A stretch of 64,000 nucleotides of DNA, taken from Escherichia coli. GTDB lineage: Bacteria > Pseudomonadota > Gammaproteobacteria > Enterobacterales > Enterobacteriaceae. Of the stretch, positions 1 through 22,990 are shown in pieces (the stretch's first letter is position 1; every line of letters starts with the position of its first letter). A model generated the notes under the pieces. It ran no database searches and was not told where the DNA came from. It was given only the letters and a program-made list of their open reading frames with translations. A program made the position numbers and the translations under genes. The DNA lies in the NCBI RefSeq assembly GCF_011045215.1, contig NZ_CP049201.1. One strand, written 5' to 3'.

Positions 1-155
1 ATACATGGAATATCCCCGCCCCGGCAATACTCAATTTTTGCAGCAAGATGAGTGTCACGCGGATAGAACTCCAGACGATACATATCCCCCAGGACATGCA
101 CTTCCTCAACCTGACGGCCATCTTTAGTTACCGTTATTTTTTTCAGTGCGTACAT
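1..155 (-). CDS. hypothetical phage protein, partial (runs off window start)
   Basis: Minus-strand ATG at 153-155 preceded by GGAGG with 5-nt spacer; open to position 1 (MYALKKITVTKDGRQVEEVHVLGDMYRLEFYPRD...); under 60 aa inside window so absent from ORF track. Confidence 0.3.
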   Translation of the reverse strand, partial: MYALKKITVTKDGRQVEEVHVLGDMYRLEFYPRDTHLAAKIEYCRGGDIPC

Positions 156-222
156 ACGTACCTCCGTTCTTTCGTTTTTTGAGTAATAAAAAAGGCCGCC
201 ACAGCGACCTTTGCCAGTACGT

Positions 223-768
223 TTACAAACCAACGCGCGCTTTCATCCAGCCATAGACAAACGACTCATTGGCCTCGCGTTTCTCTGCCAGCTCCAGATA
301 ACGCTCGCCCTGCGTACAGTTCAGGGCTTTCACCAGTACCAGTTCACCATCCCTGCTGCGATTTTTCAGATATGCCCGTAACGCATTAAGAGTACGCGGT
401 CCGATGCGTCCATCTGCATCCATATCCGGATAGAGTTTCCCGCGCAGGTTAAAAACATTCAGCCAGCGCTGAAGCATTCTGGACGCCACGGCTGGTCCCA
501 TGTTCACGCCCGTGTCGCACAACTCTGCGGCAATATCCGGAGACAGATTCTCAACCTGGTCGAATCGTGGTCCGTACCAGTAGTCCGCCTCGAGTATTTC
601 CAGCGCCTGCCCACGCGTCAGGTCACGCATATCGCCCTGATAACCGTGTGCACGGGCAACTTTTTCAGTGATGCCCCATTTAGTCGGACCACCTTTATCA
701 TCCGGGTGATTGACGTAACCGCCCTCTTTTCCCAGAATTTCGTCAAAAATTTCATCTTTCGACTTCAT
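223..768 (-). CDS. phage endolysin, GH108-like lysozyme with peptidoglycan-binding C-terminal region
   Basis: ORF-track protein carries the IFDEILGKEGGYVNHPDDKGGPTKWGIT motif typical of GH108 lysozymes; start placed at internal ATG 766-768 preceded by GAAGG; last gene of lysis cassette. Confidence 0.75.
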   Translation of the reverse strand: MKSKDEIFDEILGKEGGYVNHPDDKGGPTKWGITEKVARAHGYQGDMRDLTRGQALEILEADYWYGPRFDQVENLSPDIAAELCDTGVNMGPAVASRMLQRWLNVFNLRGKLYPDMDADGRIGPRTLNALRAYLKNRSRDGELVLVKALNCTQGERYLELAEKREANESFVYGWMKARVGL

Positions 769-769
769 A

Positions 770-1060
770 TCAGCGCCTTCGTAATACAAGGATTTTTGAT
801 ACGTTCCCGCGTGCTCGTATCACCAGCACGCAGAACACCAGGTTAATCAGGACGACCAGCCAGTTACCGGGTGGAAAGCGACCACACAGATAACAAAGCG
901 GCGCAAAGGCATAAAGCAGCATCAGCAGCCAGGCCAGCCACGACATCAGCGGTTTATGTCTCGACTCACCACGACGATAAAAAAAGAGCGTCAGCACGAT
1001 AACCGTGCTTAACACCACATTCAGTAATCCGGGAAGGTTACTTAACATTACCGCCTCCAC
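770..1060 (-). CDS. small hydrophobic lysis-cassette membrane protein (holin/antiholin-like accessory)
   Basis: 96-aa ORF with two long hydrophobic stretches, wedged between the putative holin and the endolysin with short overlaps. Confidence 0.45.
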   Translation of the reverse strand: MEAVMLSNLPGLLNVVLSTVIVLTLFFYRRGESRHKPLMSWLAWLLMLLYAFAPLCYLCGRFPPGNWLVVLINLVFCVLVIRARGNVSKILVLRRR

Positions 1061-1427
1061 CCCGCAGACGGGAGAACAGCCCGGATACCAGCGATGCGAT
1101 ATCCTGCTGGTGGATGAATGAGAGAATCTTCACTGACACCACCGATACCAGTACCGCACAAAGCGCGTCGAGAGATGTGCTGTGGAGATTCAGTTTTTCA
1201 ACCAGGTAAGACGCCATCACATCCGCCCCCAGCACGCCAACAATGAACGACACCAGAAAATGCGCTGCCACACGCCAGACAGAAATCTTCTGTGGTATCG
1301 TGGCCACAAACAGCGCCCCTGCGAATGCACCAAACACAATCCCGAAATCCGTTCCGGTAAACAGCCCGAATACCGTCGCCCCGCCGAGCGCCGCAGCCGT
1401 GCCGGAACCGGATAAGGGTTCAGACAT
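1038..1427 (-). CDS. putative phage holin
   Basis: Track ORF 1038..1640 trimmed to ATG at 1425-1427 preceded by AGGAGA; 129 aa, glycine-rich hydrophobic segments (GTAAALGGATVFGLFTG...), directly upstream of endolysin. Confidence 0.6.
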   Translation of the reverse strand: MSEPLSGSGTAAALGGATVFGLFTGTDFGIVFGAFAGALFVATIPQKISVWRVAAHFLVSFIVGVLGADVMASYLVEKLNLHSTSLDALCAVLVSVVSVKILSFIHQQDIASLVSGLFSRLRGGGGNVK

Positions 1428-1443
1428 ACTTTTTCTCCTGTAA

Positions 1444-1468
1444 ATAAAAAAGGGCCGCTGTCGGCCCG
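1444..1468 (-). terminator. hairpin plus T-run on minus strand, immediately upstream of holin (tR'-like)
   Basis: GGGCCG-ctgt-CGGCCC stem at 1453-1468 flanked by A-runs on plus strand, so T-run follows hairpin on minus strand. Confidence 0.4.
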
Positions 1469-1597
1469 TAAAAAAACACCCCGTCAAAGGCACCCGCAGA
1501 TGCCTTTTGTGTGGTGTTATCTGGTGTTTTCTGATGTGGTGTGTGCAGGACACAGATGTGAAAAAGGTCCGCCGGTACGAACCCTGTGTATGGATAA

Positions 1598-1625
1598 AAA
1601 AATGCCCGTCATGAGACGGGCTAAC
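1598..1625 (-). terminator. second hairpin plus T-run on minus strand
   Basis: GCCCGTC-atga-GACGGGC preceded on plus strand by AAAAAAA (T-run after hairpin on minus strand). Confidence 0.35.
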
Positions 1626-1675
1626 GCATTCATCATGCAAGAGTTAAGCAGGATTACCTGTATCGAATTATCGGT

Positions 1676-1751
1676 ATCAGAATGAGTCGTCAACCTGCAA
1701 CGCAATTCTGACGAATCGTAGACCCCGGTTCAGGCGACGACTCATTCTGAT
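1676..1751. repeat. 16-bp perfect inverted repeat with 44-nt spacer
   Basis: ATCAGAATGAGTCGTC at 1676-1691 and GACGACTCATTCTGAT at 1736-1751 are exact reverse complements. Confidence 0.7.
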
Positions 1752-1906
1752 AACGCATACCATTAACAATGTAAAAAACACAGCACTGAAACTGTAACCG
1801 GCCAGGCATTACAGAATGAAGAAAATAAAGTGTCCGCAACCAGATTCTTCACGAAAATTCGTCAGTGCTGATAAAGCTATGACTCATCAGTTTTACTGGA
1901 GAACGG

Positions 1907-1982
1907 TGGCGGGAATCGAACCCACATCATCAGCCTGGAAAGCTGAGGTAATAGCCATTATACGATACCCGCATACTGTGCT
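1907..1982 (-). tRNA. tRNA-Gly(UCC)-like pseudo-tRNA; acceptor 3' strand not complementary
   Basis: Minus strand reads GCGGGTATCGTATAATGGCTATTACCTCAGCTTTCCAGGCTGATGATGTGGGTTCGATTCCCGC, near-identical to E. coli glyT through D, anticodon (loop TTTCCAG) and T arms, but then continues CACCGTTCTCCA, which cannot pair with the 5' GCGGGTA. Confidence 0.4.
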
Positions 1983-2190
1983 GGCTTCCGGAATCACACG
2001 AATTACCGGGAAAGCCAGCACTGGTCTTTCCGGTGGCAAGCAACACCCCTGTGAACATAAAGACAACCACCTTCCGGACCAGTCAGAATACTAACGACAG
2101 TTTTTCAGACATCAAAAATATATTTGGTGTTCAGTTTTAAATATGTGTATACATCTGTATCAGAAATATACAACTTATATCATCACTGAA

Positions 2191-3237
2191 TTAAAAATCT
2201 TTCGTTATTTCTCTGACCGTCTGATTAAAACGTTCCTCTTCCAGTTCCACGCCAATCGCCCTGCGTCCCAGCAACAGTGCCGCTTTTATCGTGGAACCTG
2301 ACCCCATAAAAAAATCTGCGACCAAATCGCCTGGACGGCTGCTGGCAGTAATTATCTGACGCAACATATCCGCCGGTTTTTCACAGGGATGTTTGCCCGG
2401 ATAATACTGCACGGGCTTGTGCGTCCAGACATCCGTATAAGGAACGACAGCCGATACGGAAAAATAACGCCGCAGTGATTTGTATTCCTCCAGCAGGCTG
2501 ACATATTGCCGGTTCAGTTCGCTGTATGTGCTGACCAGCTGGTGATGTGGCTGCTCCAGTTCACCGCGCTGGTGTTTTTCTGCCGCCACACGTGCAAACA
2601 GCGCCTGCAGTTTACTGTAATCGGCCTCATTCGGTAACTGCCACTGACTGGTACCAAACCAGTGCGAAACCATGTTTTTCTTTCCGGTGGCTTCAGCTAT
2701 CTGTTTTGACGTTATCCCCAGTGATTCACGCGCATCACGGAAGTAAGAAATCAGCGGGGCCATCACGTGCTGTTTAAGCTCGCGCCCCTTTGCCGCATAG
2801 CCGTCATTTTTTGGCTGGTATGGCCCCTGATAATGTTCAGCAAACAGAATGCGCTCTGTTGCCGGGAAATACGCCCGCAGGCTTTCCTTGTTGCACCCGT
2901 TCCAGCGTCCGGACGGCTTCGCCCAGATAATGTGGTTCAGCACATTAAAGCGCTCACGCATCATGATTTCGGTGTCAGATGCCAGGCGATGACCACAGAA
3001 CAGGTAAAGACTTCCGGCAGGCTTCAGTACCCGCCAGAACTGCGCCAGACATCGGTCCAGCCATTGCAGGTAATCATCGTCGCCCTTCCACTGGTTATCC
3101 CAGCCCTCGGGCTTCACTTTAAAGTATGGCGGGTCTGTGACTATCAGATCGACAGAGTTTTCCGGTAATGTCCGGATAAATTCCAGGCAATCCGCGTTGA
3201 TTAACTCACAACTGGATATTTTTACAGTATTAGCCAT
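2191..3237 (-). CDS. DNA methyltransferase (N6-adenine or N4-cytosine type), orphan
   Basis: 348 aa with DPPY motif near N-terminus (LIVTDPPYF) and FxGxG AdoMet motif near C-terminus (FFMGSGST); no nuclease recognised alongside. Confidence 0.85.
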   Translation of the reverse strand: MANTVKISSCELINADCLEFIRTLPENSVDLIVTDPPYFKVKPEGWDNQWKGDDDYLQWLDRCLAQFWRVLKPAGSLYLFCGHRLASDTEIMMRERFNVLNHIIWAKPSGRWNGCNKESLRAYFPATERILFAEHYQGPYQPKNDGYAAKGRELKQHVMAPLISYFRDARESLGITSKQIAEATGKKNMVSHWFGTSQWQLPNEADYSKLQALFARVAAEKHQRGELEQPHHQLVSTYSELNRQYVSLLEEYKSLRRYFSVSAVVPYTDVWTHKPVQYYPGKHPCEKPADMLRQIITASSRPGDLVADFFMGSGSTIKAALLLGRRAIGVELEEERFNQTVREITKDF

Positions 3238-3387
3238 AGATCAATAAGCACTTCTCTGATAGGCTCATACCGCTTTTGCGCAAAGCAGATGGGCCTGAGG
3301 TTTGCTTGTGACCCCAACGCATGAGCAGATGGCTGGCAGGTGCCGCTAACACCCACCAGCCGCCCATTACCACAAATTAAAAAGCCT

Positions 3388-3585
3388 TCACTGCGAAAGG
3401 CGTCTGTAACAACCGAACTGATAATCTGCCAGACCCGCCATAACAAGCTGGGTCAGTATTAACTGGCAGCGTTCGCGTGAAAGGTAAGTATTCTGCGCAA
3501 TTTCCCCGACGGTCGCCGGTTCGGTGACGCTTAATTCATTAAACACCACTCTGGCGGTTTTGGTCATATCCTGCTGTTTTAGCAT
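3388..3585 (-). CDS. small putative DNA-binding protein (winged-helix-like)
   Basis: Track ORF 3388..3807 trimmed to internal ATG 3583-3585 (AGGGA upstream); the N-terminal extension looks non-coding; residues TVGEIAQNTYLSRERCQLILTQL resemble an HTH recognition helix. Confidence 0.35.
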   Translation of the reverse strand: MLKQQDMTKTARVVFNELSVTEPATVGEIAQNTYLSRERCQLILTQLVMAGLADYQFGCYRRLSQ

Positions 3586-3902
3586 GTCTTTTTCCCTATT
3601 CCGGTTAACGTGACATACCAATAACTCTTGTCTGAAAAGCCAGCAAGCTGAAAAACCGGTATTCGTAACCACCAGCGCGTTTAACGTACTGCACCACTTT
3701 TCGGGCACAAAAAACCCGCCTAACGGCGAGCTTAAGCTGTGTAGCGAAGTAACCACTCTTAACACACTAAGCGAAAAAATGCGGACCGCGTTAGTGATTT
3801 TTAGCAAGTTTTGCTTTATTTTTCCTACGTACAGTAAAAATAAGAAATCAATTCCAGCCAGGCTGGCTGAGTTAACACAGGTCTTAGAATGAGGGAACTT
3901 CT

Positions 3903-4913
3903 TTGTACGAAATACATTACGACGTTGAGTCTGAACAGCAAGCTTTTGAATTACTTGAACGTTACCTAAACGGACAAGCTTTACCCGAAAAAATTAGTTT
4001 CAATGGTTGGCCAAGTCTAACCATCAGGTTGACTGGTGAAAAATTCAACAAATCACTCACACCTTCAGTTATGAAAGGATTTGTTGAAATGCAATCGCAA
4101 CTCAATAAGTCTTATGCGCTAGCAAAGTTCGGAACTCCTGATGTCCGCAGGCTAACAAAAGAAGAACTTGATGCTTTAGAAATTGAAGTTACAGTAGAGC
4201 AAGGTTCATCTCTTGTAGAGATTAACATTGATGGCTTCCTAAGCAAGCTTACGCACGAACTGGTAGGGAAAATGAACGCCACAGAGATTGTATTTACGGT
4301 TCTCGGTGCTGCCGTTATATGGGGCGGTGTAACCGTCTTCAAACGCTATCTGGATAACCGTAAAGATACTCGGTTGGCTGAAATTGCTAAAGAAGGCGAC
4401 AAAGAACACCTACGCGCAATGCAAGTGATGACACAGGAGGAAACAAAACGCCTCCAAATCATCTCAGAAATGGTGGCTAAAAAACCTCTACTCGACAATA
4501 TGGATCGAATGTCTTATGACGCTAAAACCACCATGGTTAAATCTTTCGTGCGTTCAGATTCAGCAGAAATTGACGGTGTCACAATAGATTCAGAAACGGC
4601 AAAAGAGCTAGTAACAAATGCTCGTCGACGCTCAGTTGAAATGAGAATAGACGGTATATACCGTATCGAAGAAGTGAATAATACCGACCCCGAAAGCTTC
4701 AAAGTTAAGGTTCGAAAGGTCGATTCTGATCAACGTTTGACCTGCGTTGTTCAGGATATATTCCTTGATGAATCAGGGAACAAAGAAGCCTTACAGCGAG
4801 CTGAATGGGAAAGAAAGCCTGTGCATTTAAGCATCAATGCCAAACACATTGATGGAGATATCAAGTCCGCCGTAATTTTACATGTGAAAGATGTTGAAGA
4901 TAAGCCCGAGTAA
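3903..4913 (+). CDS. hypothetical protein with one central hydrophobic segment; AT-rich cargo gene, family not recognised
   Basis: 1011-nt ORF opposite to the late genes; TTG start 6 nt after GAGGGA (in-frame TAG at 3885-3887 excludes an upstream ATG); 36 G+C in first 100 nt by hand count; hydrophobic stretch EIVFTVLGAAVIWGGVTVF. Confidence 0.7.
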   Translation: MYEIHYDVESEQQAFELLERYLNGQALPEKISFNGWPSLTIRLTGEKFNKSLTPSVMKGFVEMQSQLNKSYALAKFGTPDVRRLTKEELDALEIEVTVEQGSSLVEINIDGFLSKLTHELVGKMNATEIVFTVLGAAVIWGGVTVFKRYLDNRKDTRLAEIAKEGDKEHLRAMQVMTQEETKRLQIISEMVAKKPLLDNMDRMSYDAKTTMVKSFVRSDSAEIDGVTIDSETAKELVTNARRRSVEMRIDGIYRIEEVNNTDPESFKVKVRKVDSDQRLTCVVQDIFLDESGNKEALQRAEWERKPVHLSINAKHIDGDIKSAVILHVKDVEDKPE

Positions 4914-4928
4914 TCGGGCTGTCTGGTT

Positions 4929-5309
4929 TCAAGATTCCACTTCGGCATCCATTTCTAAACTTACATCCAACATACTCAGGCAACCGTCGATAAACCCTTC
5001 AGCCATCTGTATCTCTATACGTATCAATTTCTCATCCTTCCAACGCGCCTTTGCAATCTTGCGCTTGGATATCCTGTATAAATAATGTGCCACAAGAAGC
5101 GAATGCTCATAAGGCCTTTTTTGCTTTAAACAAGCAAGACAACCTTCAATAATTAATGCGTCACTATCTGAACAAGCCAGGCGTTTCTTACTGGTATAGG
5201 GCAGAAGTCCCTTAAACCCGGCAGCTATAGGTGAATAGTCCACACCCGAGCTATCACTAGCCGCCCATGCCCCCCAACGCTCAAGAACCATCTGAATATC
5301 ACGCGCCAT
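4929..5309 (-). CDS. late-gene antiterminator Q (QuuD/DLP12-type)
   Basis: MARDIQMVLERWGAWAA...IAAGFKGL...LEMD matches the remembered QuuD sequence; sits after rusA as in lambdoid nin-Q regions. Confidence 0.75.
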   Translation of the reverse strand: MARDIQMVLERWGAWAASDSSGVDYSPIAAGFKGLLPYTSKKRLACSDSDALIIEGCLACLKQKRPYEHSLLVAHYLYRISKRKIAKARWKDEKLIRIEIQMAEGFIDGCLSMLDVSLEMDAEVES

Positions 5310-5670
5310 CGTTACCACCTGTAATTTCGTAAATCTTCACACCCAGCCGACCACCAGGTACGCGCTGACCGCGCACAATATTAATTTCATCAAACTGCTC
5401 GTCGTCGATAAGCAACCCCGCATGTGTCAGTGCATCCAGTGGTGCTTTCAGAATATTGTCCAGGTCACGACGGCGCTTATCCGGTGGCTCTGCAGTAATT
5501 TTTATTGCCAGCCTTCCGGACAGATTTAATTTCAGCCGCTGCTGGCGAACAATGAGCGCCACATCACGGCGATAACGCTCACCGGCTTTTGATACAAAAT
5601 ATGTGCTGCCACGACGTCGCCAGTAGGTGTTTACCGTCGGCGGGTAAGGCAAAACAAACTCTATACGCAT
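5299..5670 (-). CDS. rusA: RusA-family Holliday junction resolvase
   Basis: 123 aa; PPTVNTYWRRRGSTY and RRRDLDN motifs match RusA. Confidence 0.85.
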   Translation of the reverse strand: MRIEFVLPYPPTVNTYWRRRGSTYFVSKAGERYRRDVALIVRQQRLKLNLSGRLAIKITAEPPDKRRRDLDNILKAPLDALTHAGLLIDDEQFDEINIVRGQRVPGGRLGVKIYEITGGNDGA

Positions 5671-5682
5671 CAGTAACCTCTT

Positions 5683-6732
5683 TTACCCGAGCACGCCGGT
5701 TGCAAAGGCGTGATCAAGAAAACGAAAAATTAAATCAACCTGGGAACCATGCTTTTCTTCGAACGCCAGCGGATCCGCATGAAGTTCGTTGTGATGTTCC
5801 CGGCATAACGGTAGCGTGAAAATATCGTGGGATTTTGTTCCCATTCCGCCCTGACCATGACCAATCAGGTGATGGGGATCGTCGGCTGGCTTACCACAGC
5901 ACGCACACGGCTGTGTCTTTACCCAGCGTGTATATTTCTCATTTATCCAACGGCGACGTTTAGGTCGCTTCATGAAAGATTCCGGAGACTCCGGATCTAC
6001 GGCAATGCTGACCACCGTCTTTTCCTGTGGTGCGTTCTGTTGCTGGTGGGCGTGAGGTGGTAGCGCAATATTTTTTGTGCGCTGCTTCAGTATGCTGGTA
6101 GCTGTCTGCTCTCCCGGTACGATGTCGCTTTCGCGGTATACTGAGTGGATTTTTTCACCCGGAAGCTTCAGGATTCGACGCGCCATATTTTCGGTCATGG
6201 CATCCACTACATCATTTACAGCAGCCCAGCAGTACAGTTCAGCCAGCGATAATTCCCGCTCCTGTGTACCGCTTATTGCGTGACGTATGACGTCAATCAT
6301 CCAGGCTGTCAGATTTTGTTGAGCAAGCTGCCCGAGTGATTCGGAGGTCTGGTCACGCAGCTGGTTGTCGCAGTGCCAGCACAACACCATCGCGCCGGTG
6401 CCGTAACGATGTATGACGGTTTCACTGTGATGATAGTCACCATGAGGCCACTGGCAGGATTTGACATGACGCAACAGCCAGTCAGACAGTGCGCCAGCGC
6501 CGCCAGCAGCACGAATCACCCGCTCATCGCTGAAAAATGGCAGTAATGATTTATCTTCCGCCAGCGGCTGGCGAACAGCAGGAACAACTCCGAACGGCAG
6601 ACCGCGCATGCTTTTCGGTTCCGGTTCCACCAGCACTCGAGGGTTATGAAATACCTGCATGGATTCACGACCAGGCTTAAGGACCACCAGCCCGAGTTCC
6701 GGTACCGGAACAGGTCGAAGTAATACCCGCAC
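5683..6732 (-). CDS. DUF968/YdfU-like protein with C-terminal HNH-type motif
   Basis: 349 aa, same length as Qin YdfU; C-terminal CACCGKPADDPHHLIGHGQGGMGTKSHDIFTLPLCREHHNELH. Confidence 0.75.
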   Translation of the reverse strand: MRVLLRPVPVPELGLVVLKPGRESMQVFHNPRVLVEPEPKSMRGLPFGVVPAVRQPLAEDKSLLPFFSDERVIRAAGGAGALSDWLLRHVKSCQWPHGDYHHSETVIHRYGTGAMVLCWHCDNQLRDQTSESLGQLAQQNLTAWMIDVIRHAISGTQERELSLAELYCWAAVNDVVDAMTENMARRILKLPGEKIHSVYRESDIVPGEQTATSILKQRTKNIALPPHAHQQQNAPQEKTVVSIAVDPESPESFMKRPKRRRWINEKYTRWVKTQPCACCGKPADDPHHLIGHGQGGMGTKSHDIFTLPLCREHHNELHADPLAFEEKHGSQVDLIFRFLDHAFATGVLG

Positions 6733-6733
6733 G

Positions 6734-7006
6734 TTACCTCCAGATGCGTTGCTGGAATGTGCGGGATGGACGCGGTGGGCGTTCGGAATAAGGGAGCCTG
6801 ACTGAAATTATCCAGTGTCGGAAGTCAGGGCTGAGGTCTTTCTGAAACTCGTACCCACGTCTGCGGTAGTTCTGTATCAGCCATTCGGCCTGTTCTTCAG
6901 TGCAGGGGTCATGCTGATACCAGTCATATTTGAATGTGTGAGAACGCCGCCCGTATCTGCTGGCAGGGGCGGCATCAGAATTGTTAATTTTCTTGTAATG
7001 CACCAC
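6734..7006 (-). CDS. hypothetical nin-region protein
   Basis: 90-aa ORF abutting the DUF968 gene on the same strand. Confidence 0.4.
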   Translation of the reverse strand: MVHYKKINNSDAAPASRYGRRSHTFKYDWYQHDPCTEEQAEWLIQNYRRRGYEFQKDLSPDFRHWIISVRLPYSERPPRPSRTFQQRIWR

Positions 7007-7072
7007 TACTATCCTCGTAATGGTGCGACAGACGCCAGTTGTTCAGGCTGGCTTTAACTACAACATTATAAT

Positions 7073-7267
7073 CTAGTCTTTCTTAATGCTGAAGTGACTG
7101 ACCGAATCCGCATGTGATTCTTTGGTGATCAGAATAACATCGGATGGCAATGGCATTACGATAAACTCACCATTCTCAAGAACTATTACTTCATAATTAC
7201 CTGGTATAGAAAGCGCAGCAATTAATTCCTTATCGTTCATAACCAAAATCCCGTGAACTTTAAACAC
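7073..7267 (-). CDS. hypothetical small protein
   Basis: 64-aa ORF co-oriented with the early-right operon. Confidence 0.35.
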   Translation of the reverse strand: MFKVHGILVMNDKELIAALSIPGNYEVIVLENGEFIVMPLPSDVILITKESHADSVSHFSIKKD

Positions 7268-7400
7268 CTCCCCTTAAGGGGACCATCCTTCTTCTCCCTG
7301 CGCGCCAATCAAGTAATGAGATTCTATTTCCCCCGTAATTAGCCTCAAGAACAACAAATCACAAAAACACAAAAAGCCTGTTTGATTAAAAATAATCGTA

Positions 7401-7424
7401 ACAAAAAACCCGCCGAAGCGGGTT
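7401..7424 (-). terminator. rho-independent terminator downstream of hok
   Basis: AACCCGC-cgaa-GCGGGTT hairpin at 7407-7424 preceded on plus strand by AAAAAA, so T-run follows on minus strand. Confidence 0.45.
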
Positions 7425-7492
7425 AAGTGCGGGTGCGTTGAGGATGCCTGACACATCAGAGGTGGCGAGGGATTTCTCCCCCGCCAGGTCTC

Positions 7493-7648
7493 TTACTCCT
7501 CAGATTCGTAAGCTGTGAAGACAGCGACCTCCGTCTGGCCGGTTCGGATTCGTACCTCGCAGAGGTCTTTCCTCATTACCAGTGCCGTCACTATGACGGT
7601 TAAACAGATGACGATCAGGGCGATTAACATCGCCTTTTGCTGCTTCAT
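7493..7648 (-). CDS. hok: Hok/Gef-family type I toxin
   Basis: MKQQKAMLIALIVICLTVIVTALVMRKDLCEVRIRTGQTEVAVFTAYESEE is near-identical to remembered HokD; AAGGAG 7 nt upstream. Confidence 0.85.
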   Translation of the reverse strand: MKQQKAMLIALIVICLTVIVTALVMRKDLCEVRIRTGQTEVAVFTAYESEE

Positions 7649-7705
7649 AGCCTGCTTCTCCTTGCCTTTCGGCACGTAAGAGGCTAACCTACGTTTGTGT
7701 AGCAT
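7493..7705 (-). CDS. mok-like overlapping reading frame
   Basis: In-frame N-terminal extension (MLHKRRLASYVPKGKEKQA) upstream of the hok ATG, as in hok/mok/sok loci. Confidence 0.45.
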   Translation of the reverse strand: MLHKRRLASYVPKGKEKQAMKQQKAMLIALIVICLTVIVTALVMRKDLCEVRIRTGQTEVAVFTAYESEE

Positions 7706-8102
7706 AGATTGGGCCTCAGATTAATGTTAAGCGTCTTGCCGGACGCGTAATGTTAACTGGGGCTTTTCTCTGTCTGCCTTACAGTGGCATGCCCGAGGCA
7801 GACAGCCTCAGGCACCCGCAACAATCTTACCGACACCGATAAGAAAACGCTATTTTTTATTGCCAGAACCTTCTGCCCAGGCTAATGTATCCGCGTCAGA
7901 ACGGCGCAATGCGCTCGCCTGAGATACGTTTACTTGTCATTGGTGGCAACAGATAACGGCAATTGTTGTTTCTGTTTGTTTCCTTCAAAAACCCCGGACC
8001 ATCAATCCGGGGTTTTTGTTTGTTATCCCCAGCGGCAAATCGAATACACCATCAGCGCCACCGCCATCGCAATTCCTGCCGTTGTGAATGCTTCAGGCCA
8101 GG

Positions 8103-20949: not shown

Positions 20950-21198
20950 ATGGCAAGACTTATTCTGCTCACTGAGTGGGCAAAAGAGGAATTCAGCGAT
21001 CCGGTCCCTACTCCGGGCACGTTAAGTAAATACGCTAAAGCCGGAATGATATTTCCTCTCCCCAAAAAAGTTGGAAGACACTGGCGAGTGGATCCACGAG
21101 CTCGCTTTGTCGGAATGGTAAACAAGCCGGAGGTGATCGCCACAGATCACCCTGCTTTGAAGAGGATACTGGAAGATGGCGCGCCCGCGAAAATATAA
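20950..21198 (+). CDS. xis: excisionase (lambda Xis-like)
   Basis: 82 aa, overlaps int start as in lambda; GMIFPLPKKVGRHWRVDPRARFVG resembles lambda Xis. Confidence 0.7.
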   Translation: MARLILLTEWAKEEFSDPVPTPGTLSKYAKAGMIFPLPKKVGRHWRVDPRARFVGMVNKPEVIATDHPALKRILEDGAPAKI

Positions 21199-22306
21199 AA
21201 CCGAAGTTCCGGGACTATCTCCGTATTTTGACAAAAGAAATAACAAAGTTTACTGGCGTTACAGGCATCCCATAACAGGCAAAAATCACGGTCTCGGCAG
21301 TATTGACCAGAAACTGGCAGAAACTATTGCAGCAGAAGCGAACAGCCGTCTTGCCAGGCAGCAAATGGAACAAATGCTCAGTCTGCAGGAGAAAATTATT
21401 AATGATACCGGCGGTTCATCAACCGTTTCCATTTTTCTGAATAATTACAGAAAAATTCAACAGGAAAGATATGAAAACGGAGAGATCAAACTCAACACGC
21501 TGAAACAAAAAGCGGCCCCTCTCAGGGTATTTGATGAACGTTTTGGCACCAGACCGTTAGATGCCATAACTGTAAAAGATGTGGTATCGGTGCTGGAAGA
21601 GTACAAGGCCAGAGGACATAACAGAATGGGGCAAATTTTCAGGAAGGTACTGATCGATGTTTTCCGGGAAGCTCAGCAAACAGGCGATGTTCCGCCAGGC
21701 TTTAACCCTGCAGAATCGGCAAAAAAACCGCAGGTGCGGATATCAAGACAGCGACTGACTTTTGATGAGTGGATGATGATTTATAACGCAGCGGAAAAGG
21801 ATGGTTACTTTTTACAGCGCGGCATGCTGCTGGCACTGATGACAGGCCAGCGCCTTTCAGATATTTGCAAAATGCAATTTTCGGATATCCGGGATGGTTA
21901 TCTTCATGTCGAACAGCAAAAAACAGGAACCCGGATTGCCATCCCTCTTGCTCTGCGTTGCAATAAATTAAATCTCACCCTGGATGATGTGGTGTCATCC
22001 TGTCGCGATTGCGTTCTTAGTCCGTGGCTATTGCACCACCATCATGCGAAAGGGACAGCCAAGCGCGGCGGGATGGTTAAGCCAGCAACGTTAACAGTTG
22101 CATTTAAAAAAGCGCGGGATTCTGTGGATTACAACTGGCGTGCTAATGGCACCCCACCCTCTTTCCATGAGCAGAGATCTTTATCAGAGCGATTGTTCAG
22201 AGAGCAGGGAATTGATACCCAAATTTTGCTGGGTCATTCGAATCAAAAAATGACCGATATTTACAACGATGCACGCGGCAAGGAGTGGAAAAAACTGGTC
22301 ATTTGA
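21176..22306 (+). CDS. int: tyrosine integrase (lambda Int family)
   Basis: 376 aa; LTFDEWMMIYNAA...LALMTGQRLSDICKMQFSDIRDGYLHVEQQKTGTRIAIPLAL aligns with remembered lambda Int catalytic region. Confidence 0.9.
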   Translation: MARPRKYKTEVPGLSPYFDKRNNKVYWRYRHPITGKNHGLGSIDQKLAETIAAEANSRLARQQMEQMLSLQEKIINDTGGSSTVSIFLNNYRKIQQERYENGEIKLNTLKQKAAPLRVFDERFGTRPLDAITVKDVVSVLEEYKARGHNRMGQIFRKVLIDVFREAQQTGDVPPGFNPAESAKKPQVRISRQRLTFDEWMMIYNAAEKDGYFLQRGMLLALMTGQRLSDICKMQFSDIRDGYLHVEQQKTGTRIAIPLALRCNKLNLTLDDVVSSCRDCVLSPWLLHHHHAKGTAKRGGMVKPATLTVAFKKARDSVDYNWRANGTPPSFHEQRSLSERLFREQGIDTQILLGHSNQKMTDIYNDARGKEWKKLVI

Positions 22307-22313
22307 TGACCAG

Positions 22314-22347
22314 TTTTGCAGAGGAGTTTTGCAGAGATTTTGCAGAG
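22314..22347. repeat. three direct TTTTGCAGAG repeats between int stop and ompW stop (att arm region)
   Basis: Copies at 22314-22323, 22327-22336, 22338-22347. Confidence 0.6.
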
Positions 22348-22351
22348 AAAA

Positions 22352-22990
22352 TTAAAAGCGGTACCCGGCAGAGAACATAAACACCCACGGATCCAGTCGT
22401 ACCGCGTCTTTCACGGGTGTTCCGTTAGATTTATAGCTGGCTGTGGTATCGATATCCATGTACCACACTGACATGTTAACCAACCAGTCACGGTTAATCA
22501 GATAATCAACCCCCACCTGCCCGGCAGCTCCCCAGGAATCTTTCAGACTGAGATCGGAAAGCCCCGCCTCTTTGCCATGATCGTTAAATCCATTATCAAA
22601 GAAGGTGGTGTAGTTAATACCTGCCCCAACATAAGGACGGAATTTGCTGCTGGCATCACCAAAATACCACTGCGCCATCAGTGTTGGCGGCAGATGATGA
22701 ACGGTTGCAATATCGCCGGTCGCCCGGGTGCCGATTTTATGGCGGAACGGCGTCGCTGCCAGTAATTCCACACCAATGTTGTCGGTCGCCATATAAGTAA
22801 ACGTCAGGCCCAGTTGAGTGTTATTGGTCACGCTGAATCCACCCAGACTTCCTAACGTACCACCAGCACCTTCTGTTGGACGTACGGTTGCAGAACCTGC
22901 ACGCATAAAAAATTCGCCTGCTTCATGCGCAAAGGCACTGCCAGAGAGAAGAGTTGTTACTGCCAAAGCCGCCACTGTTAACTTTTTCAT
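22352..22990 (-). CDS. ompW: outer membrane protein W
   Basis: 212 aa with signal peptide; matches E. coli OmpW. Confidence 0.95.
   Translation of the reverse strand: MKKLTVAALAVTTLLSGSAFAHEAGEFFMRAGSATVRPTEGAGGTLGSLGGFSVTNNTQLGLTFTYMATDNIGVELLAATPFRHKIGTRATGDIATVHHLPPTLMAQWYFGDASSKFRPYVGAGINYTTFFDNGFNDHGKEAGLSDLSLKDSWGAAGQVGVDYLINRDWLVNMSVWYMDIDTTASYKSNGTPVKDAVRLDPWVFMFSAGYRF

Follow-up and report, generated by a model that had tools for sequence, protein, structure and literature searches.

The 64,000-nucleotide stretch of Escherichia coli DNA analyzed here (contig NZ_CP049201.1 of assembly GCF_011045215.1; hereafter, the window) contains an intact orphan DNA methyltransferase gene of the M.EcoGI/M.EcoGII family, located in the late operon of a lambdoid prophage and preceded by a conserved, structured leader RNA. 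We propose that the gene encodes a non-specific adenine methyltransferase, produced late in a Q-dependent manner, which blunts restriction in the next host, with the leader acting as an additional brake. We assign to this reading a probability of roughly 0.8. According to the proposed mechanism, the enzyme would transfer a methyl group from S-adenosylmethionine (AdoMet) to the N6 position of adenine in any sequence context. The gene is located behind a late promoter that would depend on the antiterminator Q and behind two or more intrinsic terminators. These upstream terminators would stop transcription short of the gene in the lysogen, and the enzyme would be absent. Following induction, RNA polymerase modified by Q would read through, and the methyltransferase would be made along with the lysis genes. 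Replicating phage DNA would be heavily methylated before packaging, and the methylated virion DNA would blunt adenine-methylation-sensitive restriction in the next host. By pairing the bases preceding the AUG codon, the folded leader would add a translational brake or switch on a toxic enzyme. The family of the enzyme, its intact motifs, the purifying selection, the place in the operon, the terminators, and the structure of the leader were observed in this analysis; the non-specificity of this allele, the time at which it is expressed, the benefit against restriction, and a regulatory function of the leader are inferred.

The 348-residue translation of the gene matched the family PF01555 (N6_N4_Mtase; residues 29 to 340, E = 2.8e-44, 152 bits for a cut-off of 26.7). 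An earlier note on this DNA, made from the letters alone, had described a methyltransferase of this length with a DPPY motif near the N-terminus and an FxGxG motif near the C-terminus. Both motifs were recovered (residues 35–38 and 310–314), and their order, with the catalytic motif first and the AdoMet-binding motif last, defines the beta class. A Dam-like, alpha-class identity (PF02086, MethyltransfD12) was rejected since PF01555 was the sole Pfam match and the order of the motifs is reversed. Comparison of the catalytic motif with homologues revealed no inactivating substitution, DPPY being invariant in an alignment of 27 sequences, and every invariant residue of this alignment was preserved in the window protein. 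The gene is under purifying selection (dN/dS of 0.06 to 0.13 in comparisons with six homologues). For this family, a central recognition domain built of a four-helix helix-turn-helix and connected through long, charged helical linkers has been described (PMC11551740). The AlphaFold2 (AF2) model of the monomer comprises a Rossmann half, a helical linker plus helix-turn-helix (HTH) bundle, and a second Rossmann half, with helices at residues 146–173, 177–184, 190–194, 204–224, and 231–255 between the two Rossmann halves, with pLDDT (predicted local distance difference test) values averaging only 68.5. In view of this moderate confidence, the model was not used for fold searches.

The degraded acceptor stem of the adjacent tRNA-Gly, the lack of toxin cargo, and the location of the structural half of the prophage outside the window could indicate that a cryptic prophage has left behind a gene in decay, from which no active enzyme is made. 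This is very improbable since the reading frame is of full length and collinear with active enzymes, the invariant residues of the family are all kept, dN/dS is about 0.1, and the exact protein, present in NCBI as 'site-specific DNA-methyltransferase', was found on 17 contigs.

M.EcoGI and M.EcoGII from E. coli O104:H4 C227-11 (Murray et al., 2018, PMC5778455) and M.EcoMV from EC958 share with the window enzyme the beta-class motif order, a prophage location, and the orphan state. The sequence of M.EcoGII was machine-read from PMC11551740 and contained three evident reading errors (NHHIW, TKVPQYY, and GRRRAIG), which were corrected against real members of the family and cross-checked with the M.EcoMV gene of EC958. 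The window protein, which is one residue shorter than M.EcoGII (348 vs 349), was identical to it at 297 of 345 positions of the machine-read text, and at approximately 302 of 348 positions (about 87%) after correction. Identity to M.EcoMV, which is itself 99% identical to M.EcoGI (Forde et al., PMC4659465), was 88% (303/344). The alignments with both enzymes were gap-free (86–88% identity). The approximately 45 substitutions relative to M.EcoGII are mostly located in the linkers, the recognition domain, and the C-terminal lobe. Identity amounted to 95% in the N-terminal Rossmann half, 83% in the recognition domain (13 of 78 residues differ), and 77–80% in the linkers and C-terminal half. The window allele, presumably active, also has a C-terminal tail (…REITKDF) unlike that of M.EcoGII. 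Identity to the reconstructed ancestor Anc291 was 88% overall and 91% in the recognition domain, and identity to Anc284 (SUPREM) was 72%. Anc291 has been reported to methylate DNA faster than M.EcoGII, and Anc284 retains activity without site specificity (PMC11551740). Among site-specific enzymes, the nearest relative is M.PflMI, with only 27% identity to M.EcoGII (PMC11551740). The window protein therefore lies well inside a clade whose tested members are all non-specific.

By nucleotide search, the closest phage homologues were those of phiP27 and of many Stx2a/c/d (Shiga toxin) phages, in which they are annotated as DNA methylase. At the protein level, identity was 92% for L24 of phiP27, 86% for the enzyme of phage 1720a-02, which Murray et al. 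called 'very similar' to M.EcoGII (PMC5778455), 63% for Morganella phage IME1369_02, and 59% for N15. Of 5426 complete E. coli genomes, 1891 carried homologues with at least 80% nucleotide identity, a single genome having as many as five copies, and 3027 protein clusters were detected across Enterobacterales at E ≤ 1e-20.

It has been previously shown that M.EcoGI and M.EcoGII are non-specific, and active non-site-specific ancestors extend down to 72% identity to the window protein (PMC5778455, PMC4659465, PMC11551740). M.EcoGII modifies as much as 99% of adenines in vitro, and DNA methylated by it resists 18 of 18 adenine-sensitive restriction enzymes (PMC5778455). The identity of the window allele to non-specific enzymes (86–88%), together with the active ancestors, suggests that it is non-specific as well. 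In native lysogens, M.EcoGI and M.EcoGII produce no methylation, and M.EcoGII is harmful to growth if constitutive (PMC5778455). M.EcoMV of EC958 was judged to be inactive or not transcribed by reverse transcription PCR (RT-PCR) (PMC4659465), and the copies of the family in O111 gave no methylation signal (PMC6602927).

Two roles had been put forward in the earlier note, shielding of the phage's DNA against restriction by the host and epigenetic marking of the host. The former is the published assumption for the family (PMC5778455, PMC11551740) and is the one retained here. The latter, which would require a sequence-specific orphan methyltransferase active in the lysogen, is distinctly unlikely. 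Regulatory orphan methyltransferases do exist in prophages, such as M.EcoGIII in O104:H4, though with a cognate endonuclease (PMC6602927, PMC4659465), and the 13 differences from M.EcoGII among the 78 residues of the recognition domain would leave room for a distinct specificity. However, the gene is located behind terminators in a Q-dependent operon, its relatives at 72–88% identity are non-specific (PMC11551740), and close relatives are silent in lysogen methylomes, with a negative RT-PCR in the case of M.EcoMV (PMC4659465, PMC5778455, PMC6602927). Since these relatives are motif-less and off in lysogens, the absence of a new methylated motif in the lysogen, which had been regarded as a refutation, is in fact expected of an active enzyme, and a comparison of the methylomes of the lysogen and a cured strain would wrongly suggest inactivity.

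Searches against Pfam, PADLOC, and NCBIfam detected no restriction-enzyme family beside the methyltransferase gene, in agreement with its initial description as an orphan. Its neighbors are an HTH-like open reading frame (ORF) of 65 residues, a tRNA remnant, and a protein of 336 residues with an oligonucleotide/oligosaccharide-binding (OB) fold, which do not make up a Type II restriction-modification (RM) system. The gene for the latter protein is adjacent to the methyltransferase gene and divergent from it, and the earlier note had left room for it as a restriction partner. An RM pair of this kind is barely conceivable, even if phiP27 carries a gene of the GIY-YIG nuclease family in the same slot. 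The 336-residue protein did not match any Pfam, PADLOC, or NCBIfam family. Its AF2 model (pLDDT of 85) has an alpha/beta domain at the N-terminus and long helices in the center, including one that is hydrophobic by sequence, and its fold matches were OB-folds only, at the C-terminus, with no nuclease family or fold. In addition, no cognate site can be specified by a methyltransferase that is itself non-specific. The methyltransferase is present in 1891 complete E. coli genomes, and at related loci the slot contains other cargo or none: phiP27 has the GIY-YIG protein there, NS-NP030 has a CPBP protease, the slot of CEA224S is empty, and NYN, TerB, or OmpC genes are found at other loci. The family of the 336-residue protein (82 clusters) is found in E. 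coli, Enterobacter, Klebsiella, Salmonella, Serratia, and others. The 336-residue gene is variable cargo, not a restriction partner, and may encode a moron function or an exclusion factor.

On the minus strand, the order is Q, the divergent 336-residue gene, a block containing a terminator, the 65-residue ORF, a 150-nucleotide spacer, the methyltransferase gene, a tRNA-like sequence, and the lysis genes. The late operon has the methyltransferase gene as its first sizeable gene, downstream from Q and a conserved terminator. The methyltransferase gene is co-directional with the genes for two holins and a GH108 endolysin, as had been noticed from the sequence. The order antiterminator, promoter plus terminator, usually the 65-residue ORF, methyltransferase, followed either by tRNAs and toxin or at once by the lysis genes, was shared by seven phages or prophages (phiP27, 1720a-02, SfV, mEp460, Morganella phage IME1369_02, N15, and EC958). 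The tR'-like hairpin of the first terminator displayed compensatory stem changes across three phages in addition to its computed fold, and the annotators of SfV and N15 placed a terminator at the same position. Silence of the gene in the lysogen, as predicted from the sequence, is consistent with the two upstream terminators and with the lack of a promoter-like site on this strand. The simple consensus scan used for this purpose detected no sigma-70-like promoter on the minus strand, but it also missed the expected late promoter and the clear terminator at 3715–3731, and the coordinates of pR' were left unassigned. In Stx phages, the late promoter pR' is constitutively active, and transcripts stop at tR' in the lysogen, Q being required to proceed (PMC7547250, PMC6266700).

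The M.EcoMV locus of EC958 has the same layout as the window, comprising Q, a small ORF, the leader, the methyltransferase gene, and a tRNA. The same operon position is also occupied by L24 in phiP27, which is an Stx2e phage, by the 'DNA methylase' gene located between Q and stx2 in Stx2a/c/d phages, and by the methyltransferase gene of 1720a-02. The leaders of these phages are 89–99% identical to that of the window. They differ from the window by the cargo between Q and the leader, and by the presence of functional tRNAs and stx after the methyltransferase gene, which is followed in the window by a degraded tRNA-Gly and no toxin. In N15, the methyltransferase (gene 52) comes after a promoter and a terminator placed by the annotator and before the holin, as in the window, and is preceded by a divergent copy of the leader (41.7 bits, E = 1.6e-6). 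N15, whose prophage is a linear plasmid, differs in that it lacks the upstream 65-residue ORF and has another late regulator. Homologues of this ORF (45–97% identity) were found in phiP27, 1720a-02, CEA224S, mEp460, and the Morganella phage. N15 excepted, the ORF was always directly upstream from the leader and the methyltransferase gene. Its product could regulate the methyltransferase or act together with the leader. Both the family and the late-operon position of the methyltransferase are standard, and this part of our results was already known.

The Dam enzymes of T4, T2, and P1 are likewise adenine methyltransferases of mobile elements that lack a cognate endonuclease and are thought to pre-empt host restriction. 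Dam-type enzymes belong to the alpha class (PF02086) and are specific for GATC, and they are unlike the window enzyme in fold order and operon position. The plasmid-encoded adenine methyltransferase M.EcoGIX, which also lacks a cognate endonuclease and is also thought to forestall host restriction, acts on single-stranded DNA in conjugation with a preference for SAY (PMC7736820), and again differs from the window enzyme in fold order and operon position.

The spacer between the 65-residue ORF and the methyltransferase gene displayed nucleotide conservation above that of both flanking genes. The block AATGGGCGGCTGGTGGGTGTT was identical even in the Morganella phage, in which the synonymous sites of the methyltransferase gene are saturated. 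Upstream regions were sampled from 80 loci, with one genome per species, and the 38 distinct regions were aligned with MAFFT. This alignment supported a structure made of five helices, P1, P2, P6, P4, and P5. Without any fitting of the alignment to the structure, 87% of the cells were paired, as opposed to 31–41% if the partners were slid. Eighteen pairs were changed on both sides vs 12.7 ± 1.6 in shuffled alignments, none of which reached this value (0/500), and the covariation score was 0.203 vs 0.124 (0/500). In the covariance-model alignment, which leans toward the structure of the model, compensatory changes were observed in 29 of the 42 pairs. G·U pairs outnumbered A·C pairs by 151 to 63, indicating that the fold belongs to the RNA of the sense strand. 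No Shine-Dalgarno sequence was read within 15 nucleotides of the AUG codon of the methyltransferase gene.

The 5' arm of P2 harbors the Chi octamer GCTGGTGG. We rejected Chi as the cause of leader conservation, as Chi is found in leaders of the Enterobacteriaceae type whereas other lineages keep the stem with different pairing sequences. The stem, and not Chi, is therefore the conserved feature. Chi octamers were present at 3353–3360 and 3669–3676, both on the minus strand, which is the late sense strand, and both in conserved non-coding blocks between Q and the methyltransferase gene. The window contains 17 Chi sites (1.8 expected), 13 of them on the minus strand.

Alternatives to pairings of the five-helix structure were also considered. 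The pairing b:d (GCUCA with UGAGC) was rejected since it is broken in Providencia-type sequences. The pairing a:c (UGGGC with GCCCA) is possible in every sequence, with one covarying pair, and the pairing b:e was 71% paired, with four covarying pairs. As a hypothesis, a second fold combining a:c and b:e would set free the strands engaged with the bases that precede the start codon; this second fold is less well supported than the first.

A covariance model derived from the MAFFT alignment detected the leader in 52 of 90 sources. The leader ended at the methyltransferase start except at a Vibrio locus, where the match is approximately 145 nucleotides upstream from the start inferred from tblastn. 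In the window, a single match was obtained (118 bits, E = 4e-23). Matches outside the seed were found in N15, Serratia, Pseudocitrobacter, and the Vibrio prophage, and only the 5' hairpin domain was found at the Xenorhabdus and Photorhabdus loci. In complete E. coli genomes, 2708 of 5426 contained a match, and RefSeq annotates nothing there among the 30 E. coli matches listed. Matches were obtained in 59 phage records as well, almost all of which likewise leave the leader unannotated. Searches against Rfam 15 did not return any match to the leader at E ≤ 1 (positions 1–8000) or E ≤ 10 (positions 3200–3900), and no description of it was found in the literature searched.

A loose pattern scan of viral contigs returned 120 stretches, comprising 84 true leaders located before a methyltransferase gene, 2 cut by contig ends, 4 weak variants, and 30 chance occurrences. 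In phages without the methyltransferase, three divergent viral copies preserve P6 through an entirely changed set of bases (GAACAAA with UUUGUUC). Two of these copies (L285 and L267) are located directly before a small membrane-protein ORF of the holin type. In L285, this ORF has a P22-type Q-like gene with zinc-finger motifs upstream and endolysin and Rz-type genes downstream. The presence of leader copies before holin-type ORFs in the absence of a methyltransferase indicates that the leader is a late-operon feature, not strictly tied to the methyltransferase. In phage phiSTEC1575-Stx2k (L089:2515-3350), only the first half of the leader is present, and a 237-residue 'HTH domain' ORF replaces the methyltransferase, probably as the result of a deletion that took the N-terminal catalytic half of the enzyme.

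Helical pairing immediately ahead of a start codon is typically seen in translational control, as in riboswitches and leader RNAs. The window leader resembles translational riboswitches in this start-proximal pairing, from which it differs by having no Rfam match. To judge by its anatomy, it probably limits translation of the first late gene, as a brake or a switch. The pR'-tR' RNAs of lambdoid phages, lambda 6S RNA and StxS (PMC7547250), are also non-coding and also belong to the 5' region of the late transcript. They are located between the promoter and the terminator, whereas the leader is downstream from the tR'-like terminator. We tentatively consider the leader to be an undescribed cis-regulatory RNA of lambdoid late operons that may act as a switch between two folds gating the first late gene, a view that we hold at somewhat below even odds. 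In such a switch, P6 and P4 could pair the bases before the start codon, and a three-way junction (UGGGC with GCCCA, P2, and b:e) could free them. The trigger would perhaps be the binding of a metabolite, for instance AdoMet, or of a protein of the phage, for instance the product of the 65-residue HTH ORF. The gene placed under such control could be a toxic non-specific methyltransferase, as here, or a holin, as in some phages.

Several observations weigh against a late, non-specific enzyme that protects phage DNA and is restrained by the leader. The searchable literature contains no phage-infection experiment on any member of the family, and the anti-restriction benefit is assumed. The methyltransferase monomer was modeled by AF2 with moderate confidence only (pLDDT of 68.5), the late promoter was not located by the simple scan, and the left, structural part of the prophage is outside the window, which bears on its inducibility. 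Specificity may have changed in the window allele, to judge by the 13 of 78 recognition-domain residues that differ from M.EcoGII. The leader variant located before holins in phages lacking the methyltransferase may reflect a general late-operon element in place of a control specific to the methyltransferase. Finally, plasmid pBR322 with 80% N6-methyladenine transforms E. coli 4–5 logs worse (PMC5778455), and very heavy methylation may harm the phage genome itself.

Owing to this poor transformation by heavily methylated plasmid DNA, a benefit other than protection of packaged DNA remains a live, albeit unlikely, rival. The enzyme would still be non-specific and late but would serve for hypermethylation of the host chromosome or RNA, shutting off host functions in the lytic phase, for blinding another defence, or for modification of an RNA target. 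The slower growth caused by constitutive M.EcoGII and its activity on single-stranded DNA, RNA, and DNA:RNA hybrids (PMC5778455) are in favor of this possibility, as are the tRNA genes located directly downstream from the methyltransferase gene at most loci. However, activity on RNA is about 100-fold below that on DNA (PMC11551740, supplementary table S3), a host-shutoff role has no experimental backing, and an enzyme made along with the lysis genes would have little time to reprogramme the host. Protection of packaged DNA is the reading that we prefer.

Table 1. Features of the late region, leader elements, and related copies (positions in the window unless a viral contig is named).
Feature	Position	Strand	Basis or remark
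DNA methyltransferase coding sequence, 348 residues, beta-class N6-adenine, M.EcoGI/GII family	2191..3237	-	ORF and PF01555
Catalytic motif IV DPPY, residues 35-38	3124..3135	-	Regular expression on translation; invariant in 27 aligned homologues
AdoMet-binding motif I FxGxG (FMGSG), residues 310-314	2296..2310	-	F310, G312, and G314 invariant in homologue alignment
Methyltransferase segment	2527..2760	-	83% identity to M.EcoGII, 91% to Anc291; all-helical in AF2 model
Structured leader RNA, about 140 nucleotides, abutting methyltransferase AUG	3238..3373	-	Conservation and covariation
Leader helix P1	3362-3367 with 3321-3326	-	
Leader hairpin P2, long	3331-3361	-	
Leader outer helix P6	3303-3314 with 3238-3250	-	3' arm (UGAUCU) ends one base before AUG
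Leader helix P4	3290-3296 with 3261-3267	-	
Leader hairpin P5	3270-3289	-	
Chi octamer GCTGGTGG in 5' arm of P2	3353..3360	-	Late-gene sense strand
Divergent leader copies in phages lacking the methyltransferase	L285:5434-5571; L267:1525-1685; L253:1414-1548	+; -; -	27-29 bits
Terminator-like hairpin and U-run over stop codon of 65-residue ORF	3375..3401	-	Compensatory changes across phages
65-residue ORF	3388..3585	-	phrog_331; elsewhere annotated TrmB-family/HTH; upstream of leader and methyltransferase
Late-transcript start block and intrinsic terminator (tR'-like hairpin 3715-3731, T-run)	3709..3764	-	Invariant block
336-residue gene, variable cargo between Q and late leader	3903..4913	+	phrog_6191; function unknown in PHROGs
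Late antiterminator Q, 129 residues	4929..5318	-	PF06530, E = 4.5e-50; phrog_79
tRNA-Gly(UCC)-like gene, degraded acceptor stem	1902..1972	-	Rfam tRNA, 36.4 bits
Lysis cassette, same operon as methyltransferase, downstream	223..1427	-	Pfam
Holin	1038-1427	-	One of Pfam Phage_holin_8 and Phage_holin_3_7
Holin	770-1060	-	One of Pfam Phage_holin_8 and Phage_holin_3_7
GH108 endolysin	223-789	-	Pfam Glyco_hydro_108 and PG_binding_3
Integrase, lambda-type, 376 residues	21176-22306		Adjoins ompW

The window is a portion of the E. coli chromosome that we take to include ompW, yciC, yciB, tonB, kch, cls, opp, adhE, and narGHJI (names according to the K-12 map), the flanking genes being assigned by their size and order. 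The lambdoid prophage occupies approximately 1–22.3 kb of the window. It is inserted at the ompW site (interval 21176–22990), which is also used by some Stx2 phages (records named 'PPompW'). In addition to the late region, it encodes an ExoVIII-like gene, a CI-type repressor, and a DnaC-like loader, followed by DUF968, RusA, and Q. The tRNA-like sequence fills the slot that holds tRNAs and stx in Stx phages and a tRNA and toxin in LT-II phages. ARAGORN detected no tRNA near the methyltransferase gene and rejected the sequence at 1902–1972 but accepted its intact homologue from strain CEA224S, in comparison to which the 3' acceptor strand of the window copy is altered. The toxin slot is empty, with no toxin gene between the tRNA-like sequence and the lysis genes, and two further terminator-like hairpins are located between this sequence and the holin genes. 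The nin region of the prophage contains a hok/sok-type toxin-antitoxin locus (7493–7817, minus strand), with a sok RNA at 7643–7817 (109 bits) and a Hok-like ORF of 70 residues at 7493–7705. Adjoining this locus, a match to IsrK, a small RNA of Salmonella prophages, was below threshold (30.5 bits for a gathering score of 50; 7403–7484, minus strand).

EcoGII is already sold as a reagent, and members of its family have already been catalogued in lambdoid prophages, those of Stx phages included. As one more allele of a known family, the methyltransferase is of limited interest by itself. The leader is a strongly covarying RNA, unannotated in databases, that is present in about half of the complete E. 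coli genomes, across Enterobacterales, in N15, and in a Vibrio prophage. It occupies the very place at which a cell-toxic enzyme, or the lysis genes, must be kept from being expressed. Should the leader be a switch, it would constitute a new control point for expression of late genes and of the Shiga-toxin operon, and could be a ready-made means of tight expression control for enzymes of the EcoGII type.

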